Source: an uncultured bacterium
Lineage (GTDB): Bacteria; Planctomycetota; UBA1135; GCA-002686595
Length of the DNA stretch: 64,000 bases
Assembly (NCBI GenBank): GCA_943787795.1
Contig: CALSNU010000002.1
Coordinates: 576,001 to 640,000, forward strand
Direction of reading: 5' to 3'
Shown: positions 18,001-27,000 of the stretch, piece by piece
Position numbering within the stretch: the stretch's first letter is position 1
How the letters are laid out: each line of letters opens with the position of its first letter
Position numbers: made by a program

Positions 18001-21000
18001 CGGACCAGCATCCCCTTGAGGAGCCGGCCAGAGACCTCCTGTGTGGGGGAGGCCGCCAGGGTGCTCGGTGCGAGCGCCAGGGCGCTGACGGCCAGGGCGG
18101 CCAGGGGCAGCGCCGGGCGCCGGATAGCTCTACGGGTGGTGGGCATGGGCGTCATTCTCTCAGGATTCTCATCGGGTGTCGGTCGGCCTGCCCTTCACCC
18201 CTTGCGCGGTCGGCTCTCGGTCCGACCCTCCCAGTCAACACGAAGCCACCAACGAGGTTCCTCCTGTTCTTGTTCCACGTCTCGTCTCGTCCGTAGAATC
18301 GTGTCCTGCGGCCCCCCTATCGGATGCCGCGCCGGGCCCCGCGCCCGAATGCTGCATGACGCACGATGATCAGAGGGCGCCTTCGGGGCGTGGTGCCGAG
18401 GTGCTCCGTCAGGAAGCCCGGGCGATCGCAGGGCTTGCAGAGCGCCTCGGGGGCGACGTCGGAGGGGCGGGGGATGCCTTCGGCGCGGCCGTAGCGATGG
18501 TCTTGTCGTGCCGCGGGCAGGTGGTCGTCACGGGGATGGGGAAGGCCGGCCTGATCGGTCAGAAGATCTCGGCCACCCTCGCCAGCACCGGGACTCCCTC
18601 CTTCTTCCTGCACCCCGCGGAGGCCCTCCACGGGGACCTCGGCCGGGTTCGGCAGGGGGACGTGGTCCTCGCCATGTCGAATTCAGGGGAGACGGCCGAG
18701 GTCAACATGGTCATGGGCGCCGTGCGCAAGCTGGGGATCCCGCTGATCGGCCTGACCGGCCGGGCCGACTCGACCCTGGGCCGCTACGCCGACTGCCTGC
18801 TCGACATCGGTCGAGTGGAGGAGGCGGGCCCCATGCGGCTCGCGCCCACCGCCAGCACGACCGTGATGCTCGCCCTGGGAGACGCCCTGGCGATGGCGGT
18901 GCTCGAGGAGCGAGACTTCGGGCCCCGGGACTACGCGATCTTCCATCCCGGGGGCAGCCTCGGTCGGAGCCTGCTCCGCGTGGACGAGGTCATGCGCAAG
19001 GGAGAGAGCCTCCCGCTGGTGAACGCCGGGACCAGCGTCGCGGACGCGCTCATCCAGACCTCGAAGACTCCGGGGCGTCCAGGGGCCTCGCTCGTGATCG
19101 ACGCGGACGGGCGCCTCGCGGGCATCTTCACCGACGGCGACCTGCGCCGGCTCCTGGAGCGCGGCGACTTCGGTCACCTTGAGCGTCCGATCGACGAGTT
19201 CATGGCCAGCGAGCCCAAGGTCCTCGGGCCGAGCGATCTGGCGGTGGACGCCCACCGACTCCTGCGCGAGAACCGGATCGATAACGCCCCCGTGATTGAC
19301 TCCGAGCGGCGCCCGGTGGGCCTGCTCGATGTCCAGGATCTGATCGAGGTCGGGATCTGACCCAGTCGTGCGCCGACTGATCATCTTTGCCCTGGTCTTC
19401 GGCCTGGGTGCCTCGCTTCTCTGGTACCTCGAGTCCGAGCGGCTGAGGTCGGACTCCGATCGCACGGGGTCCCTCGACCTGGATCGCACGAGCGAGACGT
19501 CGATCCCGCCCTTCGTGCCGCCTTCGCCGGAGGCCGAGGATGAAGCCGTCGGATCAGAGACCGAGAGCACTGGATCCGACGGAAGCGGGTCCCGCGGCAG
19601 CGGGTCCGGGGGTGCGGGCCCCGACGAGGCTGTGGGCGGCGCTGCGGCCGCCGACGATCGCAACACTCTCCTCAAGGGGGAGCGGGTGGTCACCAGCGGC
19701 GCCCAGAAGACGAACCTGCCCCCGCGGCGGGCGGGCGAGCCTCGCATCGTGTTGGTCACGTCCGACATGCAGCCCACTGACGATCAGGGCACGCAGTATG
19801 AGCTGACAGGAGTCGAGGTCGACTCCTTTGTCGTGACGGGCGCGCCGCGGAATGAGGAGCCAAAGAGCAGCAGTATCCGGGCCGCGAAGGGGTACCTGGA
19901 GCTGGTCACAGAGGACCTCGGGCTGGAGTTCGACGATGACATCAACGTCCTCCTCGAGGGCGTCGTCGTCCAGCAGCTGATGAACACGCCTCTCGCCCCC
20001 TTGACGCTGGAGGCAGAGCGGCTCGACGCCAAGCTCGCCCTGGAGGAGCTCCGGTCCGTGGGCGACGATCTGGTGAGCTTCGCCTCCCGGGACTTCCGCG
20101 GCACAGGTCGCGGGCTGGTCGGCCTGGGAGGGATCGGCAGCCTCTCCTTCGAGGGTGGTGCGGATGTGGTCGTGGAGCTTGGCGCGGATCGCTCGGCGCG
20201 AATTCGTTCCAAGGAGGGGGGGCAGCTCAACGTCGTCTCAGTTCTCGGGCCGGATGGCGCGAGTCGCCGAGTGGTCCGGGTGCGTGCAGAGGGCGGCGTG
20301 GTGCTGGTCTTCGGTGACGCCTCCGGTGAGACCGCCGACGGCGACTCGATCTCGGTGGAGGCTGGCGCCGTTGACGTGGACATCGAGCTCGGCGGAGAGG
20401 GCGTTGCCAATCGAATCCTCGACGCCCGCGCTGGCGCTGGAGTCGAGGTTCGACGGGGGCGGGACCGCTTCAGCGGGCAGGAGGGTCGTATCGAGTTCGA
20501 CGGCGCGCGGCCGCGACGGGTGACCCTGCGCGGAGAGCCGAGCGTCGCCTATGTGGTGGAGGAGGCCGACGGCGAGCTCCGGCTGGAACTGACCGGCGTC
20601 GGCCCCCTCACCGCGAACCTCGAGCCCGCCGCAGGCGCCCCCGACGAGTATGGAGCCCAGCGCTTCGTCTTCCTCGGTCCCGGCACGCTCGCCGCCGCCG
20701 ATCGGGGTGGCACCATCACGTTCCAGAACGAGGCCCAGGGCCGCGCGTCCATGGATCGGTCGAGCGCGGTGGTCCTCCTCAGTGGATCGGTCCGCGCCGA
20801 CTCCGCCGAGGGGGCGCTCGAATCCGAGTCTGTCCTGGCGACCTACCGCGGCGAGCGAGGGGTGCAGCTCTCGGCCGAGGGGCCCTCCACCCTCAGGGCG
20901 CGGCGAGCCGACGGTCTCTACCGGGCGGAGGCGAGGGGCGGGCTGACCGCACGTCTCGAGGGCGAGCGTTGGTTCATTGACGAGGCCCGAAGCTTCGAGG

Positions 21001-24000: not shown

Positions 24001-27000
24001 GCGAAGGGGTGGCGAAGGATGACCTGTTCTCGGACCTCCCCGGCGGCGCTCAGCTCCCCATCGGCGACGGGGACTCTGGGCGAGCGGACCTCATTCAGCG
24101 GGTCGCGCTCCCCCTCCGGACGGGGGTCGGCGGAATCAAGGCAACGCCCTTCGCCGAGGTGCGCGGCACGGCGTGGACCGAGTCGCTCGACGATGACGGA
24201 GAGGACCCGCTGCGGGGCGCGGCCATCGCGGGCATGGAGCTCTCCACGACCCTCCACAAGGTCACCGACAGCGGATACCTGCACGCGCTAGCGCCGCGCA
24301 TCTCGGCGTCCAAGGACCTTTGGTACGAGGAGAGCGGCGGCGAGCTGATCCCCTTTGACCGGACCGAGGAGCCGATCGATGGCGATCGCTATGAGGCGGG
24401 TCTCCGGGCGCTCTGGCAGCGACCGAGCACCTTCGAGACTTTCGACCTCGACGTCCGAGCGACGCTCCTCAAGGACCGCTCAAGAGAGGACCTCGAGGAC
24501 CTGAGACAGGTCGCGACGTTGGGCCGGTACATCACGGGGTATGGCAGCGGCGAGGGGCTGATCGGCATCCTCCATGACGCCCGCTACGACGTCGAGAACA
24601 CCGAGACGACCTACACACGGAGCACCTTCGCGGTGCGGCCCGATGACGAGTACCTGTTCGAGGTCAGCTACGGTCAGGCGCGGGCGCTCGACCGGGCGGA
24701 GCTCTACGAGACGGCTGGCGTCGCCGGGCGCTGGATGGTGGACCCGAAGTGGGAGATCGAAGCGCGGTACTCCAGGGACCTGCGCGAGAGCGAGTCGTTG
24801 CTCACGGAGCTCGTCCTGCGGCGCTTCAGTCACGACTTCGTGCTCGACCTGATCTTCCAGGACCGGGCCGGTGAGGGCGGGACCACGATCGGGTTGAGCT
24901 TCAAGCCGCTCCTGGGCTGGACCCGAAGCCGTCCTGGGCCTGCTGGACCGGCGCTAGTCGCTCAGTTGCCCACGGGCGTCCACGTCATCCCGTCCTGGGC
25001 GGTGAGGCCAGCTGCGGCCAGCGCCACATCCGAGCTCATGTCATCGGTCACCGAGAAGGCTGCGTCGAACTCTGGCGAGCGGTTCAGGCCGTCGTAAGCA
25101 CCCCCCGATGCCCCGATGTTGTTCCGGGTCGCCACGACGTCCCCGATCTCGTTGATCATGAAGGCCCTGCGGCCGGTGCGATTGATCTGCTTGGGCCACG
25201 CGTAGCAGCACCACATCAACTCGCAGTTCTGGCTGTCCGGGTAGGCGCCGGGGTTCGCTCCGCCGCTACCACGCTCGGGGAGGCCACCGACGACGCCGCC
25301 TGTGCCTCTGTTGGGGAGGAAGATCTTGAAGTAGTAGCCGTTGCGCTCGATGGTCCCTTCACCTGCGTTGTCGAAGACGTCTGAGAACTGCTTGGACAGG
25401 AAGGACGGCTGGGCGCTGTCGCCCGCAGCGCCGATGCCGATCCCGAGCGCGGACCAGACTCGGACGGGGGTGCCTCCAGAGAGCTCTCCGAAGTAACCCG
25501 CTTCACCACCACCGTCGAGATCCGTGTCGATGGTGACGCTCGAGATCATGTTCTGCTGAGCGGTGGCGATCGACCGGAGGGTCGAGATGGTGGCGTTCTC
25601 GTTGGCCGAGATCCGCGCGCTCACCAGCTTTGGGATCGCGATGGCCGCGACGATCGCGATGATCGCGACGACGATCATCAACTCGATGAGGGTGAAGCCG
25701 GACTGCTTGTTGGGACGGGGCATTGGAATCGTGCGCGAGATCAGGGCGCGGGGCGCCTGGCGGGTCGGCCGGTCCGGAGCGGACCTGCAATCGGCCCTAT
25801 CGACGTGATCCTCTGATTCCTTGACGGGTCCCGTAGCGCACCCGCAAAACACGGCTCAGGGGGCCTGCAGAGCCCCTTCAGGCCGCCACGGGAGGCGACC
25901 TGTGCCAGAAGAGGAGGGCAGCCCCCAGCGCTGACCTCTCCCCCGGGAGGGGCCAAGCGGGGGCCGCGCTGAGGGCTTCGGTGGTGACCCTGACGTGGGT
26001 CTAGAAGAGGCCGAGGATCTCGCCGTTCTCGTCGATGTCCACCTGCTTGTACGCAGGGGTGCGACCCAGGCCGGGCATGGTCATGATCGCTCCGGCGTAG
26101 ACGACGACGAAGCCCGCGCCGGCCGCCAGTCGGGCCTCCCGCACGGGGAACACGAACCCTTCGGGAGCCCCCTTGAACTGCGCGTCGTGGCTGAGGCTGT
26201 ACTGCGTCTTGGCCATGCAGATGGGGAGCTTGCCGTAGCCCTGCTCCTCAAGGCGCGCCAGCGTCTTCTTCGCGGCGGCAGAGAACTCCACCGACCCCGC
26301 GCCGTAGATCTTCAGGGCGAGTGCCTCCACCTTCTCGGTCAGCGGAGCTTCATCGGGATAGAGCAGCTTGAAGTCGGCTTCCCCGGACTCGGCAGCGTCG
26401 ATGATGGCCTGGCCGATCGCGGCGCCGCCTTCACCGCCCTTGGCGTGCACCTCGCTCACCTCGGCGGCGCGGGCGCCAGCCGCAAGGGCTCGCTCCTTGA
26501 CCACCTCGATCTCGGCTTCGGTATCTGTTGGGAAGCGGTTGATCGCCACAACCACCGGCACTCCGTAGCTCCGGACGTTCTTGACCTGGGCCTCCAGGTT
26601 CGAGCATCCCTTCAGCACGGCCTCGGTGTTCTCCTGGAAGAGCTCATCGGGGAGCGGGCGGCCCTGGCGGGTGGGGTAGTTCCCCGAGTGCACCTTCAGG
26701 GCGCGGATCGTGGCCACCAGCAGGACGGCGTCGGGGGTCATGCCCGAGGCGCGGCACTTGATGTCGAAGAACTTCTCGGCGCCCATGTCCGCGCCGAAGC
26801 CAGCCTCGGTCACGAGGTAGTCCACGTGACCCTGGGCGACGCGGTCCGCGACGATGGACGAGTTGCCGTGGGCGATGTTGGCGAAGGGGCCTGTATGGAC
26901 GAAGGCGAGGGTGCCCTCGGTGGTCTGCATGATGGTCGGGTCGATGGCCCGCTGCAGGATGGCGGCCATGGCACCCGCCACCTCGAGCTCATCCGCCGTG

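Follow-up and report, generated by a model that had tools for sequence, protein, structure and literature searches.

In E. coli, the Lpt bridge for lipopolysaccharide (LPS) consists of LptC (PF06835; structures 3MY2 and 6MIT), LptA (PF03968; 2R19/2R1A), and LptD (PF04453; 4Q35 and 5IV9). A locus in the window analyzed here, a 64,000-nucleotide (nt) stretch of DNA from an uncultured planctomycete, raised the question of whether a single polypeptide can take the place of these three proteins. The locus begins with kdsD (18176..19360; like all features below, on the + strand unless noted), which encodes an arabinose-5-phosphate isomerase with SIS and CBS domains (TIGR00393, 294 bits; PF01380; PF00571) and whose listed start probably lies too far upstream. 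Eight bases after the end of this KpsF/KdsD gene at 19360, a GTG codon at 19368 opens a frame that, as a preliminary description had reported, runs without interruption to a TAA at 25097 and encodes 1,909 amino acids as written in the window. The end of this frame proved to be wrong. The window's reading from residue 1856 on is ...TRSRPGPAGP..., but the 47 homologues compared all finish with ...TRSRLGLLDRR. With one of the two Cs at 24933-24934 deleted, the frame regains an ending of the homologue type (...LGLLDRR), followed by a TAG stop at 24955-24957. The surplus C (24932..24934) was absent from the contigs of all three sequencing runs covering the site, one of an RNA library (X17) and two of DNA (X3 and X7); a fourth, X18, has no coverage there. 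Because of these homologue endings and the missing base in independent runs, the last 47 residues, whose coding sequence runs into the 3′ end of a gene on the minus strand (24962-25852), are an artifact of a one-base assembly error. The true gene spans 19368..24957 and its product has 1,862 residues, not 1,909; the corrected sequence is identical to the homologue P0003.

Sequence families say little about this protein. Its sole Pfam match, to LptD (PF04453) at residues 1736-1795, fell short of the cut-off of 22.4 bits with a score of 15.2, and an NCBIfam scan gave no match, so that the reported lack of hits in these collections holds at the cut-offs. A profile of 35 family members found no sequence in the PDB at an E value of ≤1. 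Relatives were more informative: among 16 fused proteins, Pfam matched LptC in two (one above the cut-off), LptD_N in two (one above), and LptD in five (two above), and among nine separately encoded N-terminal proteins, described below, it matched LptC in three and LptD_N in two (one each above the cut-off). The Lpt models of Pfam are weak in this lineage, as none of three separate LptD proteins passed the PF04453 cut-off.

The fold evidence consists throughout of predicted models, built from alignments of 19 to 21 sequences. For the model of residues 1080-1855 (pLDDT of 78.6), the 31 Foldseek rows displayed among the first 38 ranks were all LptD, with E values from 1.0 × 10−25 to 1.4 × 10−7. 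Full-length LptD structures led these matches (8h1s_C, 1.0 × 10−25; 5iv9_A, 2.6 × 10−25; 4q35_A, 4.6 × 10−23), and barrel-only entries (5ixm_A, 5iv8_A, and 4rhb_C) were matched with TMt values of 0.6 to 0.66. As modeled, this part of the chain is a complete LptD, with two family-specific helices (residues 1128-1171) preceding a periplasmic jellyroll (residues ~1178-1349; 22899..23414) and an outer-membrane β-barrel of roughly 24 to 26 strands (residues ~1350-1855; 23415..24932). Within its own genome, PF04453 matched the fusion gene only, and the earlier proposal that this gene is the missing lptD was borne out.

Recomputation also upheld the described order of an anchor-type helix, a disordered linker, and LptC-like and then LptA-like jellyrolls in front of this LptD. 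The model of residues 95-1100 (pLDDT of 80.5) was compared with 48,161 chains in a VIA search, in which LptC took ranks 1 and 2 (Z of 14.5 and 12.4) and LptA and LptH took ranks 4 and 5 (Z of 11.2 and 11.1); in a second VIA listing for the N-terminal part, 23 of the 24 top rows were proteins with Lpt in their titles. The first module (residues 105-279; 19680..20204) was aligned by VIA-align with LptC structures 6mit_C (Z of 14.5, root mean square deviation [rmsd] of 3.2, 150 of 175 residues), 4b54_B (Z of 12.7, rmsd of 1.9, 124 of 125 residues), and 3my2 (Z of 12.6), and Pfam LptC matched the homologous place in the relatives P0047, L057, and L055 (29.7, 24.5, and 19.2 bits; cut-off of 21). 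An LptA-type continuation follows (residues ~280-481; 20205..20810). Residues 153-481 are covered by matches to LptA, LptH, and the N-domain of LptD whose registers slide along the chain, as exemplified by 2r1a_C (Z of 10.8, rmsd of 2.1, model positions 147-303), 4uu4 (Z of 10.2, rmsd of 2.0, positions 230-387), and the LptD N-domain of 9ia0_A (Z of 12.1, rmsd of 2.9, positions 74-323), and in relatives Pfam LptD_N matched at ~325-379 (P0032, 21.8 bits with a cut-off of 20.4; P0011, 13.5 bits). At the other end of the N-terminal part, the last jellyroll (residues 940-1096; 22185..22655) resembled 9dor_C, the LptC of an LptB2FGC complex (Z of 10.4, rmsd of 3.6, 117 of 130 residues, model positions 846-1002), and the corresponding module at the C terminus of separate N-proteins matched LptD_N with 23.0 (L085) and 13.7 (L081) bits. 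According to these models, Lpt-type jellyrolls make up residues 105-480 and 940-1096.

The claim of a continuous run of such jellyrolls is supported for these two segments (Z of 10 to 14.5) but not for what lies between them. In the middle region (residues ~482-939; 20811..22184), DSSP assigned almost only strands, arranged in long hairpins, and structures matched only at an rmsd above 7. Generic hairpin-repeat proteins (MORN, radial-spoke, and OspA) scored Z of 6 to 9 on parts of the N-terminal model, and Foldseek with the whole of it returned LptD (E values of 5 × 10−6 to 3 × 10−4) mixed with unrelated large β-proteins. Comparison of modules by hhalign gave 62% for M2-M3, 41% for M3-M5, and 72% for M5 versus the LptD jellyroll. 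Within the region, residues 663-717 and 760-814 form a diverged tandem duplication (E value of 7.5 × 10−5). By its model the region is all-β, and an Lpt jellyroll fold is unproven for it. As a lead only, its neighbors in ESM feature space were mostly LptD_N/LptC clusters.

The N-terminal part had been taken for an extension of LptD and the giant form for a fixed trait of the family; a comparison of loci contradicted both. The fused frame was present in 23 of 25 sampled genomes of the family, and in the other two (G061 and G085) the genes are separate and LptD has its own signal peptide. Sister families do have an LptD of normal size, as described, but the partner gene upstream of it had been overlooked: N-protein and lptD were separate in all eight loci fetched. 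Across the order, a membrane-anchored N-protein of ~780 to 1,030 residues is encoded immediately upstream of a normal lptD with signal peptide, in the arrangement kdsD-(kdsC)-N-protein-lptD, and the split genes abut or overlap by 4 nt where ORF limits are clear (L081, L083, L085, and L088). These N-proteins are homologous to residues 1-1075 of the fusion, and resemble it in having the conserved N-terminal helix, in starting their modules with an LptC-like one and finishing with an LptD_N-like one, and in lying behind kdsD. The difference lies at residues ~1070-1085 (22575..22622), where in the split forms the N-protein terminates at a stop codon and LptD begins with its start and cleavable signal peptide, whereas alignment with them revealed no signal-like hydrophobic stretch at this place in the fused proteins. 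Since it is a separate gene upstream of lptD in the sister families and in two genomes of the family itself, the N-terminal portion of 1,075 residues is a pre-existing gene and not an outgrowth of LptD, a point that is new here. The fused form was also found in 46 database clusters (1,583 to 1,972 residues) from several sources. An orthologue, P0015, is present in the cultured relative Saltatorellus ferox Poly30. The immediate upstream neighbor on the same strand was kdsD in 19 of 20 family loci, the 20th being cut by a contig end, and in all five loci inspected a KdsC-like gene stands between kdsD and the N-terminal part; two of these were scanned, and their top NCBIfam match was KdsC, although the scores of 112 and 110 bits do not reach the cut-off. 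The order in E. coli is kdsD-kdsC-lptC-lptA.

The chain starts with MRR and a hydrophobic helix (residues 4-21; 19377..19430), predicted to act as a signal-anchor that is not cleaved, in the manner of the LptC transmembrane helix. In full-length homologues this helix comprises 16 to 21 uncharged residues preceded by R/K and followed by E/D/R, with no AxA site, and its G-x-x-x-L-W motif is conserved in fused and unfused forms. Separate LptD proteins of the same order differ in that a short h-region leads into AxA|Q. These sequence features suggest that the helix stays uncleaved as an inner-membrane anchor of the LptC type; a covalent inner-to-outer-membrane topology would require both this and the absence of processing at the junction. 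Between the helix and the first jellyroll lies a low-complexity linker rich in S/G/D/A/E (residues 26-104; 19443..19679), predicted to be disordered (pLDDT below 50 at its start) and variable in length, reference position 95 corresponding to positions 45-115 in relatives.

Other components of LPS synthesis and transport were found in the genome: lptF and lptG (173 and 155 bits), lptB (336.6 bits), LpxC (290 bits), and WaaA (152 bits). PF06835 and PF13100 matched nothing in it, and the best match of PF03968 fell inside a gene that is GAPDH-like by its N-terminal sequence. Hidden Markov models built from the modules of the family recovered only the fusion gene among 37,663 six-frame ORFs, and in 26 family genomes (85 to 95% complete) all listed matches of the N-part profile lay at this locus. 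In agreement with the earlier search, no other LptA- or LptC-like gene was thus detectable in this genome, which is 84.9% complete and in which LptA-like proteins that are small and divergent could go undetected by all of the models applied. LptE (PF04390) was not found either, leaving the translocon incomplete as annotated.

We consider it probable, at roughly two chances in three, that this natural fusion of two adjacent LPS transport genes works as a single-chain LPS bridge. Its upstream partner, present across the order, codes for a predicted bitopic inner-membrane protein whose LptC-type transmembrane helix is followed by a flexible linker, an LptC-like jellyroll, and then many β-modules of LptA and related types. 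This gene occupies the slot that lptC-lptA has behind kdsD-kdsC in E. coli. The second partner, downstream, is lptD. Loss of the first stop codon and of the LptD signal peptide created the chain of 1,862 residues. Its helix would remain in the inner membrane beside LptB2FG, the LptC-like module would receive LPS from LptFG, and the lipid would pass through the groove formed by the tandem jellyrolls, which the middle region may continue, to the attached LptD jellyroll and barrel and on to the outer leaflet. If so, the bridge is one polypeptide of genetically fixed length, and LptA oligomerization has no part in it. The order of folds, the slot behind kdsD-kdsC, and the presence of lptB, lptF, and lptG resemble the three-protein system of E. 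coli, whose periplasmic part has roughly 150 + n × 160 residues. Unlike that system, the fusion has a periplasmic part of ~1,000 residues in one chain, an 80-residue disordered linker after the helix, a single cysteine in the whole protein, no detected LptE, and similarity below Pfam cut-offs. An engineered fusion of E. coli LptC and LptA, likewise covalently linked, is reported to form a stable complex with LptB2FG and to support LPS transfer to LptD in vitro; that construct is artificial and has two modules only, with LptD unattached (PMC12065857).

The fusion could also exist without a covalent link between the membranes, which we regard as unlikely. Cleavage of the helix as a signal peptide would leave a giant LptD whose long periplasmic arm docks noncovalently on LptFG; alternatively, a cut through the exported precursor at the junction would yield two proteins again, like those of relatives with split genes. 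A Sec signal is required for LptD, and the only hydrophobic segment of the fused chain is the N-terminal helix, which includes a G-A-S tripeptide. Moreover, two separate proteins suffice in two genera of the family and in all sister families, and a BAM-folded barrel with its N terminus held in the inner membrane would be unusual. Against cleavage speak the charged end of the conserved helix, its lack of an AxA-type c-region, its unlikeness to the bona fide signal peptides of same-order LptD proteins, and its presence in separate N-proteins that have no barrel to export. The unusual topology may have a counterpart in the elongated MlaD of Veillonella parvula, which has been proposed, from modeling and localization assays, to be a single-chain trans-envelope lipid bridge joining a domain in the inner membrane to a β-barrel in the outer membrane, differing from the fusion in its MCE domain, helical tube, hexameric state, phospholipid cargo, and Mla system (PMC10665443). 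This MlaD has no homology to Lpt proteins.

That the β-region instead holds LptD in position with respect to the inner membrane or cell wall, as a spacer, ruler, or tether, while an undetected small LptA/LptC does the transport, strikes us as quite improbable. The 450 middle residues without an established Lpt fold, the incompleteness of the genome, and the failure of separate LptD proteins to pass PF04453 leave some room for it, but the Lpt jellyrolls at both ends, the relatives passing LptC and LptD_N cut-offs, the lptC-lptA slot, and the lack of any other candidate by lineage models, three Pfam families, and the 26 genomes argue for a conduit. AsmA-like proteins such as TamB and YhdP likewise combine an N-terminal anchor helix and a very long β-rich, periplasm-spanning lipid groove with an outer-membrane barrel partner, which in the TamB-TamA pair is a separate protein; they belong to another fold family. 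We give very little credence to the idea that the N-terminal part is such a phospholipid transporter, or another of the bridge type, fused to an LptD-like barrel. Apart from this resemblance, the Foldseek matches included LPD-3, a bridge-like lipid-transfer protein (rank 29, probability of 0.63, E value of 2 × 10−4), and also ApoB100; yet Lpt proteins led both VIA lists, with no AsmA, TamB, or YhdP chain among the best 50 rows of either, Pfam matched LptC and LptD_N but no AsmA-type family (at E values of ≤1 for the protein and ≤0.1 for 16 relatives), and the neighboring genes serve Kdo synthesis. Hardly credible, finally, is an assembly or gene-calling artifact joining two genes. The window does contain the indel at 24932, and high-GC DNA yields long spurious frames, such as the 1,719-residue open frame of G007, which proved to be two genes. 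The same fused frame nevertheless recurs in most of the sampled family genomes and in the database clusters, its proteins have lost the LptD signal peptide of the split forms, and DNA contigs of two other runs span the junction without differences (a 5,494-nt contig of X3 over 22300-24614 and one of X7 over 22409-22886).

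The plus-strand frame at 19368-25097, which lies in surrounding DNA of about 70% G+C, is uninterrupted and encodes 1909 aa as written in the window. A KpsF/KdsD-type arabinose-5-phosphate isomerase gene (TIGR00393, 294 bits) ends 8 bases before it, in agreement with the preliminary description of an open frame behind kdsD; the length of 1909 aa given there, however, had to be revised. All 47 database homologues end in ...PLLGW-x-R-x-R-L-G-x-L-D-R-R, whereas the window reads ...TRSRPGPAGP followed by 47 more residues. Dropping one C of the CC at 24933-24934 restored the family ending and placed a TAG stop at 24955-24957. 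Because the surplus C was missing from the contigs of all three sequencing runs that cover the site, and because the database record P0003 has 1862 aa and is otherwise identical to the window protein, the true protein is 1862 aa long and the 47-residue tail is an assembly error. The surplus C (24932-24934) resembles an error of the homopolymer type, and other indels may therefore exist in the assembly. The false tail overlaps the end of a minus-strand gene for a type IV pilin-like protein (24962-25852; PF07963 N-terminal methylation motif, 42.8 bits, and a weak DUF2950 match), which is convergent with the giant gene. The minus strand also carries a common planctomycete pair at 13891-18155: one gene encodes a DUF1501 protein (481 bits), the other a PSCyt1/PSCyt2/PSD1 protein of 955 aa that has EF-hand motifs. 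Such neighbours are typical of Planctomycetota. The basic C-terminal tail after PLLGW (24900-24957) is kept family-wide and has no terminal aromatic residue; such a residue is usual in many outer-membrane barrels.

Residues 1080-1855 were modelled with a 19-sequence alignment (A3) from genomes of the family, at a pLDDT of 78.6. In a Foldseek search of the PDB with this model, every one of the 31 rows listed as far as rank 38 was an LptD entry (E values of 1.0e-25 to 1.4e-7), the full-length LptDE structures 8h1s, 5iv9 and 4q35 aligned over 750-885 columns, and TonB-dependent receptors came after the LptD entries with E values of only about 1e-5. The model contains a jellyroll at about 1178-1349 followed by roughly 24-26 barrel strands. 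These residues are thus predicted to have the LptD fold, a periplasmic jellyroll with a large C-terminal beta-barrel, and the claim of a complete LptD at the C terminus held. In the Pfam scan of the 1909-aa protein the only match was LptD (PF04453), at 15.2 bits over residues 1736-1795 and below the cut-off of 22.4 bits; an NCBIfam scan of the giant protein returned no match. PF04453 matches only the giant gene in the source genome and 5 of 16 fused relatives at an E value of ≤0.1, and 2 of these 16 exceed its cut-off (23.8 and 22.8 bits). As none of the three separate LptDs of the order passes it, the Pfam model is weak in this lineage. Two model helices at residues 1128-1171 (22749-22880) lie between the last N-terminal strands and the LptD jellyroll, grouped around a conserved W-x-x-x-W-x-D-R motif that the order's separate LptDs also have at their start. 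LptE, the lipoprotein partner that plugs the barrel of LptD, was not found with PF04390 in the source genome, which is 85% complete; the same family matches just 3 of 14 control genomes.

The N-terminal part of the protein was examined in a model of residues 95-1100 (21-sequence alignment A2; pLDDT 80.5; model residue plus 94 gives protein residue), which consists of strands nearly throughout. This N-model was compared all-against-all with 48,161 PDB representatives by VIA, a structure comparison independent of Foldseek. Ranks 1 and 2 were LptC (6mit_C, Z 14.5, rmsd 3.2, 150/175 residues; 6mjp_C, Z 12.4) and ranks 4 and 5 were LptA 2r19_A (Z 11.2) and LptH 4uu4 (Z 11.1, rmsd 2.0). Further LptC structures match the first module (4b54_B, Z 12.7, rmsd 1.9, 124/125 residues; 3my2, Z 12.6), and LptC is matched once more by the last module (model 846-1002, Z 10.4); LptA 2r1a_C (Z 10.8, rmsd 2.1) and the LptG jellyroll (Z 9.4) are also among the matches. 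When VIA was applied to the 1000 best chains of Foldseek, 23 of the 24 leading rows bore the title of an Lpt protein. Structures of LptC, LptA, LptH and the LptD N-domain align at low rmsd in sliding registers and together tile model residues 11-387, those of the LptA fold covering 59-387, as expected from a continuous head-to-tail stack of jellyrolls. Foldseek with the whole 1006-residue N-model mixed LptD with LRP2, DDB1 and teneurin and was unusable by itself.

Pfam provided a second line of evidence in relatives. PF06835 (LptC; cut-off 21 bits) matches the first module of P0047 and of the locus L057 at 29.7 and 24.5 bits, and the homologous module of L085, L055 and P0046 below the cut-off (20.6, 19.2 and 13.6 bits). 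PF03968 (LptD_N; cut-off 20.4 bits) matches the second module of P0032 at 21.8 bits and the last module of L085 at 23.0 bits, and falls below the cut-off in L081 (13.7 bits) and P0011 (13.5 bits). Neither family matches the giant protein of the window, and the Pfam scan gave no match at all in 6 of 16 fused relatives and 4 of 9 separate N-terminal proteins (N-proteins). Among PDB sequences, a profile built from 35 family members had no match with an E value of ≤1; sequence alone therefore does not reach the solved Lpt proteins. Taken from the models, the N-terminal part would comprise a jellyroll with the LptC fold and LptA-fold jellyrolls stacked head to tail, the stack being predicted only for residues about 153-481 and 940-1096. 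The LptC-like and LptA-like modules proposed earlier were thus recovered by VIA and by the Pfam matches of relatives, and the proposed continuous run of Lpt jellyrolls stood for these two stretches but not for residues about 482-939, which are covered by high-rmsd structure matches only.

Generic hairpin-repeat proteins score Z 6-9 on parts of the N-model. Among modules of the N-terminal part, hhalign profile-profile comparison gave only moderate probabilities, of 62% for M2-M3, 41% for M3-M5 and 72% for M5 with the LptD jellyroll, and the language-model neighbours of residues 430-940 belong mostly to LptD_N/LptC clusters, which we regard as a lead only. Pfam families of the AsmA/DUF490 type were found neither in the giant protein (E ≤ 1) nor in 16 relatives (E ≤ 0.1), and neither VIA list of 50 rows, in which the middle of the model is barely covered, contained an AsmA-like or TamB chain. 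When a set of 5.8 billion proteins was searched with residues 100-1075 for shorter homologues, only five fragments of close relatives were returned, which is uninformative on distant separate forms. Predicting a complex of the LptF-like and LptG-like proteins with residues 100-290 gave a score of 0.45, against 0.43 for a control with chain 2 replaced.

In the source genus the middle region contains a diverged tandem duplication, residues 663-717 and 760-814 (21354-21809), with 33% identity over 55 aa (E value of 7.5e-5), and a family HMM of the duplicated module matches twice. The N-terminal part measures 859-987 residues in most genera and 1080-1127 in the source genus, and the LptD part is steady at 730-786 residues. 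Together with the duplication, this combination of a variable N-terminal part and a constant LptD fits a spacer or bridge that evolves in length by added modules.

The protein begins with MRR, 18 uncharged residues and then ESER. Full-length homologues have 16-21 uncharged residues with a conserved G-x-x-x-L-W and without an AxA site, and the helix is conserved both across the family and among the separate N-proteins. By contrast, ordinary signal peptides that end in AxA before Q are found on the order's separate LptDs. Judged from sequence, the helix is probably an uncleaved signal-anchor like that of LptC, that is, a single N-terminal transmembrane helix before a periplasmic domain. The linker of about 80 residues that follows it, rich in S/G/D/E, differs from LptC. 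The inner-membrane-type helix and linker of the preliminary description were therefore retained.

The fused form was present in 23 of 25 sampled genomes of the family and in the source genome. It had been called fixed in the family, which holds for these 23 but not for G061 and G085, two genomes of different genera with two ORFs overlapping by about 42 nt: an N-protein of about 930 aa that shares the N-terminal helix of the fused form, and an LptD of about 800 aa that bears a signal peptide of its own (N-protein and lptD ORFs at 2953-8198 of locus L055 in G061 and at 2974-8147 of L057 in G085). In both loci the signal peptide begins downstream of the listed lptD start, and the true start may therefore lie past the 42-nt overlap. 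The sister families were correctly credited with a normal-sized LptD in the fetched loci, but the N-terminal part had been overlooked there as a separate upstream gene. Of 101 genomes sampled from the order, 53 match its profile; beyond the family the matches are in ORFs of 777-1237 aa, which in 10 genomes share a contig with the LptD match and are located just upstream of it. All eight fetched sister-family loci have kdsD and LptD, and the N-protein was found in seven by family HMMs and in the eighth by the N-part profile. In the four with clear ORF limits (L081, L083, L085 and L088), its end either directly adjoins the start of lptD or overlaps with it by 4 nt.

Within the family, kdsD is directly upstream in 19 of 20 loci, and a HAD gene of 181-191 aa lies between kdsD and the giant gene in all five loci inspected; in the two scanned, its best NCBIfam match was KdsC (112 and 110 bits, below the cut-off). 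Family and sister loci together give an order-wide arrangement, kdsD-(kdsC)-[anchor + LptC-like + LptA-like modules]-lptD, which is collinear with the kdsD-kdsC-lptC-lptA order of E. coli. In the source genus kdsD abuts the giant gene (19360-19368) with no kdsC in between, and phmmer with a relative's KdsC found no homologue in the source genome, where at 85% completeness a kdsC may still have been missed.

In the fused proteins a short linker occupies the junction (residues about 1070-1085), at which the split forms have a stop codon and the LptD signal peptide. A single fusion after the split clade had branched off is possible, as is a fusion followed by fission; a tree built from the LptD part groups the two split genomes as one clade inside the family, the base of the family being unresolved. 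All sister families have the split form, which makes fusion the simpler explanation. Frames of 1719-1725 aa at the LptD of another family, f8, were rejected as fusions: the sole locus fetched (G007) has two overlapping frames, a normal gene pair.

The source genome (4.71 Mb, 8 contigs, 84.9% complete) also encodes lptF and lptG (173 and 155 bits; best NCBIfam matches LptF and LptG), lptB (336.6 bits), LpxC (290 bits) and WaaA (152 bits). A second LptA/LptC-like gene was sought with PF06835 and PF13100, which had no match in this genome, and with HMMs of the family's own modules, which found only the giant gene among 37,663 six-frame ORFs. Likewise, the N-part profile matches listed for all 26 family genomes sit at the giant-gene locus. 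Several candidates were discarded. The best PF03968 match, a weak one (C3:322827-323030), was treated as a false positive because it lies inside a 347-aa gene with a GAPDH-like N terminus, and a weak first-module HMM match (C2:110110-111648, E value of 0.016) appears to be an efflux-adaptor-type lipoprotein. The gene directly upstream of lptB (C1:130250-131884, minus strand) encodes a putative 544-aa signal peptidase I-like protein whose catalytic boxes seem to be separated by a large insertion, and the gene directly behind lptF-lptG (C4:361091-362569, minus strand) a predicted helical, TPR-like, repeat-rich lipoprotein with lipobox LLSAC; neither looks like a jellyroll, and the lipoprotein might or might not serve the Lpt system, for example in the manner of LptE or LptM. 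That no other LptA or LptC gene is detectable was thus confirmed for this 85%-complete genome by Pfam, family HMMs and the neighbours of lptB and lptFG. As modelled, the giant protein would work like LptA and is not LptA in the strict sense, since its modules are internal to a membrane-anchored chain rather than a soluble stand-alone protein.

According to the bridge model, LPS crosses the periplasm on a continuous LptC-LptA-LptD track; the number of LptA units per bridge and the need for bridge assembly and disassembly are debated. By analogy with the E. coli system, the N-terminal helix would anchor the chain next to LptB2FG, the LptC-like module would take over LPS, the tandem modules would convey it over the periplasm and the attached LptD would place it in the outer membrane. 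We consider it slightly better than an even bet (about 0.55) that one chain is both an integral inner-membrane protein, with its helix by LptB2FG, and an outer-membrane barrel, and so a permanent, covalent LPS conduit of genetically fixed length that originated when two translationally coupled genes fused in the Saltatorellus ferox family. Our confidence is high for the architecture of the fused protein and moderate for the covalent trans-envelope topology, in which the anchor would stay uncleaved and the chain unprocessed. The whole track as one chain in a natural lineage would be a strong natural test of the bridge model: a permanent bridge of fixed length would suffice, its length could be set against the periplasmic width, and the Lpt bridge would work without assembly or disassembly. 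BAM would also have to be able to fold a barrel whose other end sits in the inner membrane, which raises a question of biogenesis for a protein that starts with a Sec signal-anchor and ends in a BAM substrate.

The literature searched describes an engineered LptC-LptA construct, reported to be functional in vitro (PMC12065857), but we came across no LptC-LptA or LptA-LptD fusion of natural origin in it. For Veillonella MlaD, modelling and localisation assays have led to the proposal of one chain that combines an inner-membrane domain with an outer-membrane barrel (PMC10665443). The passage of Speth et al. 2012 that lists LptD in Planctomycetes leaves LptA and LptC unmentioned (PMC3422733). The closest named relative of the giant protein is a hypothetical protein of 'Planctomycetes bacterium Poly30', since named Saltatorellus ferox in an account of the Saltatorellota that describes shapeshifting cells and an enlarged periplasm (10.1101/817700). 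The family includes this one cultured member, strain Poly30, as well as close two-gene relatives; the two forms could be swapped experimentally. Contigs from RNA libraries of one study (X17 and X18) cover parts of 22641-25100 at an identity of at least 99%, possibly through DNA carry-over, and DNA of the stretch is present in marine metagenomes of about 10 studies.
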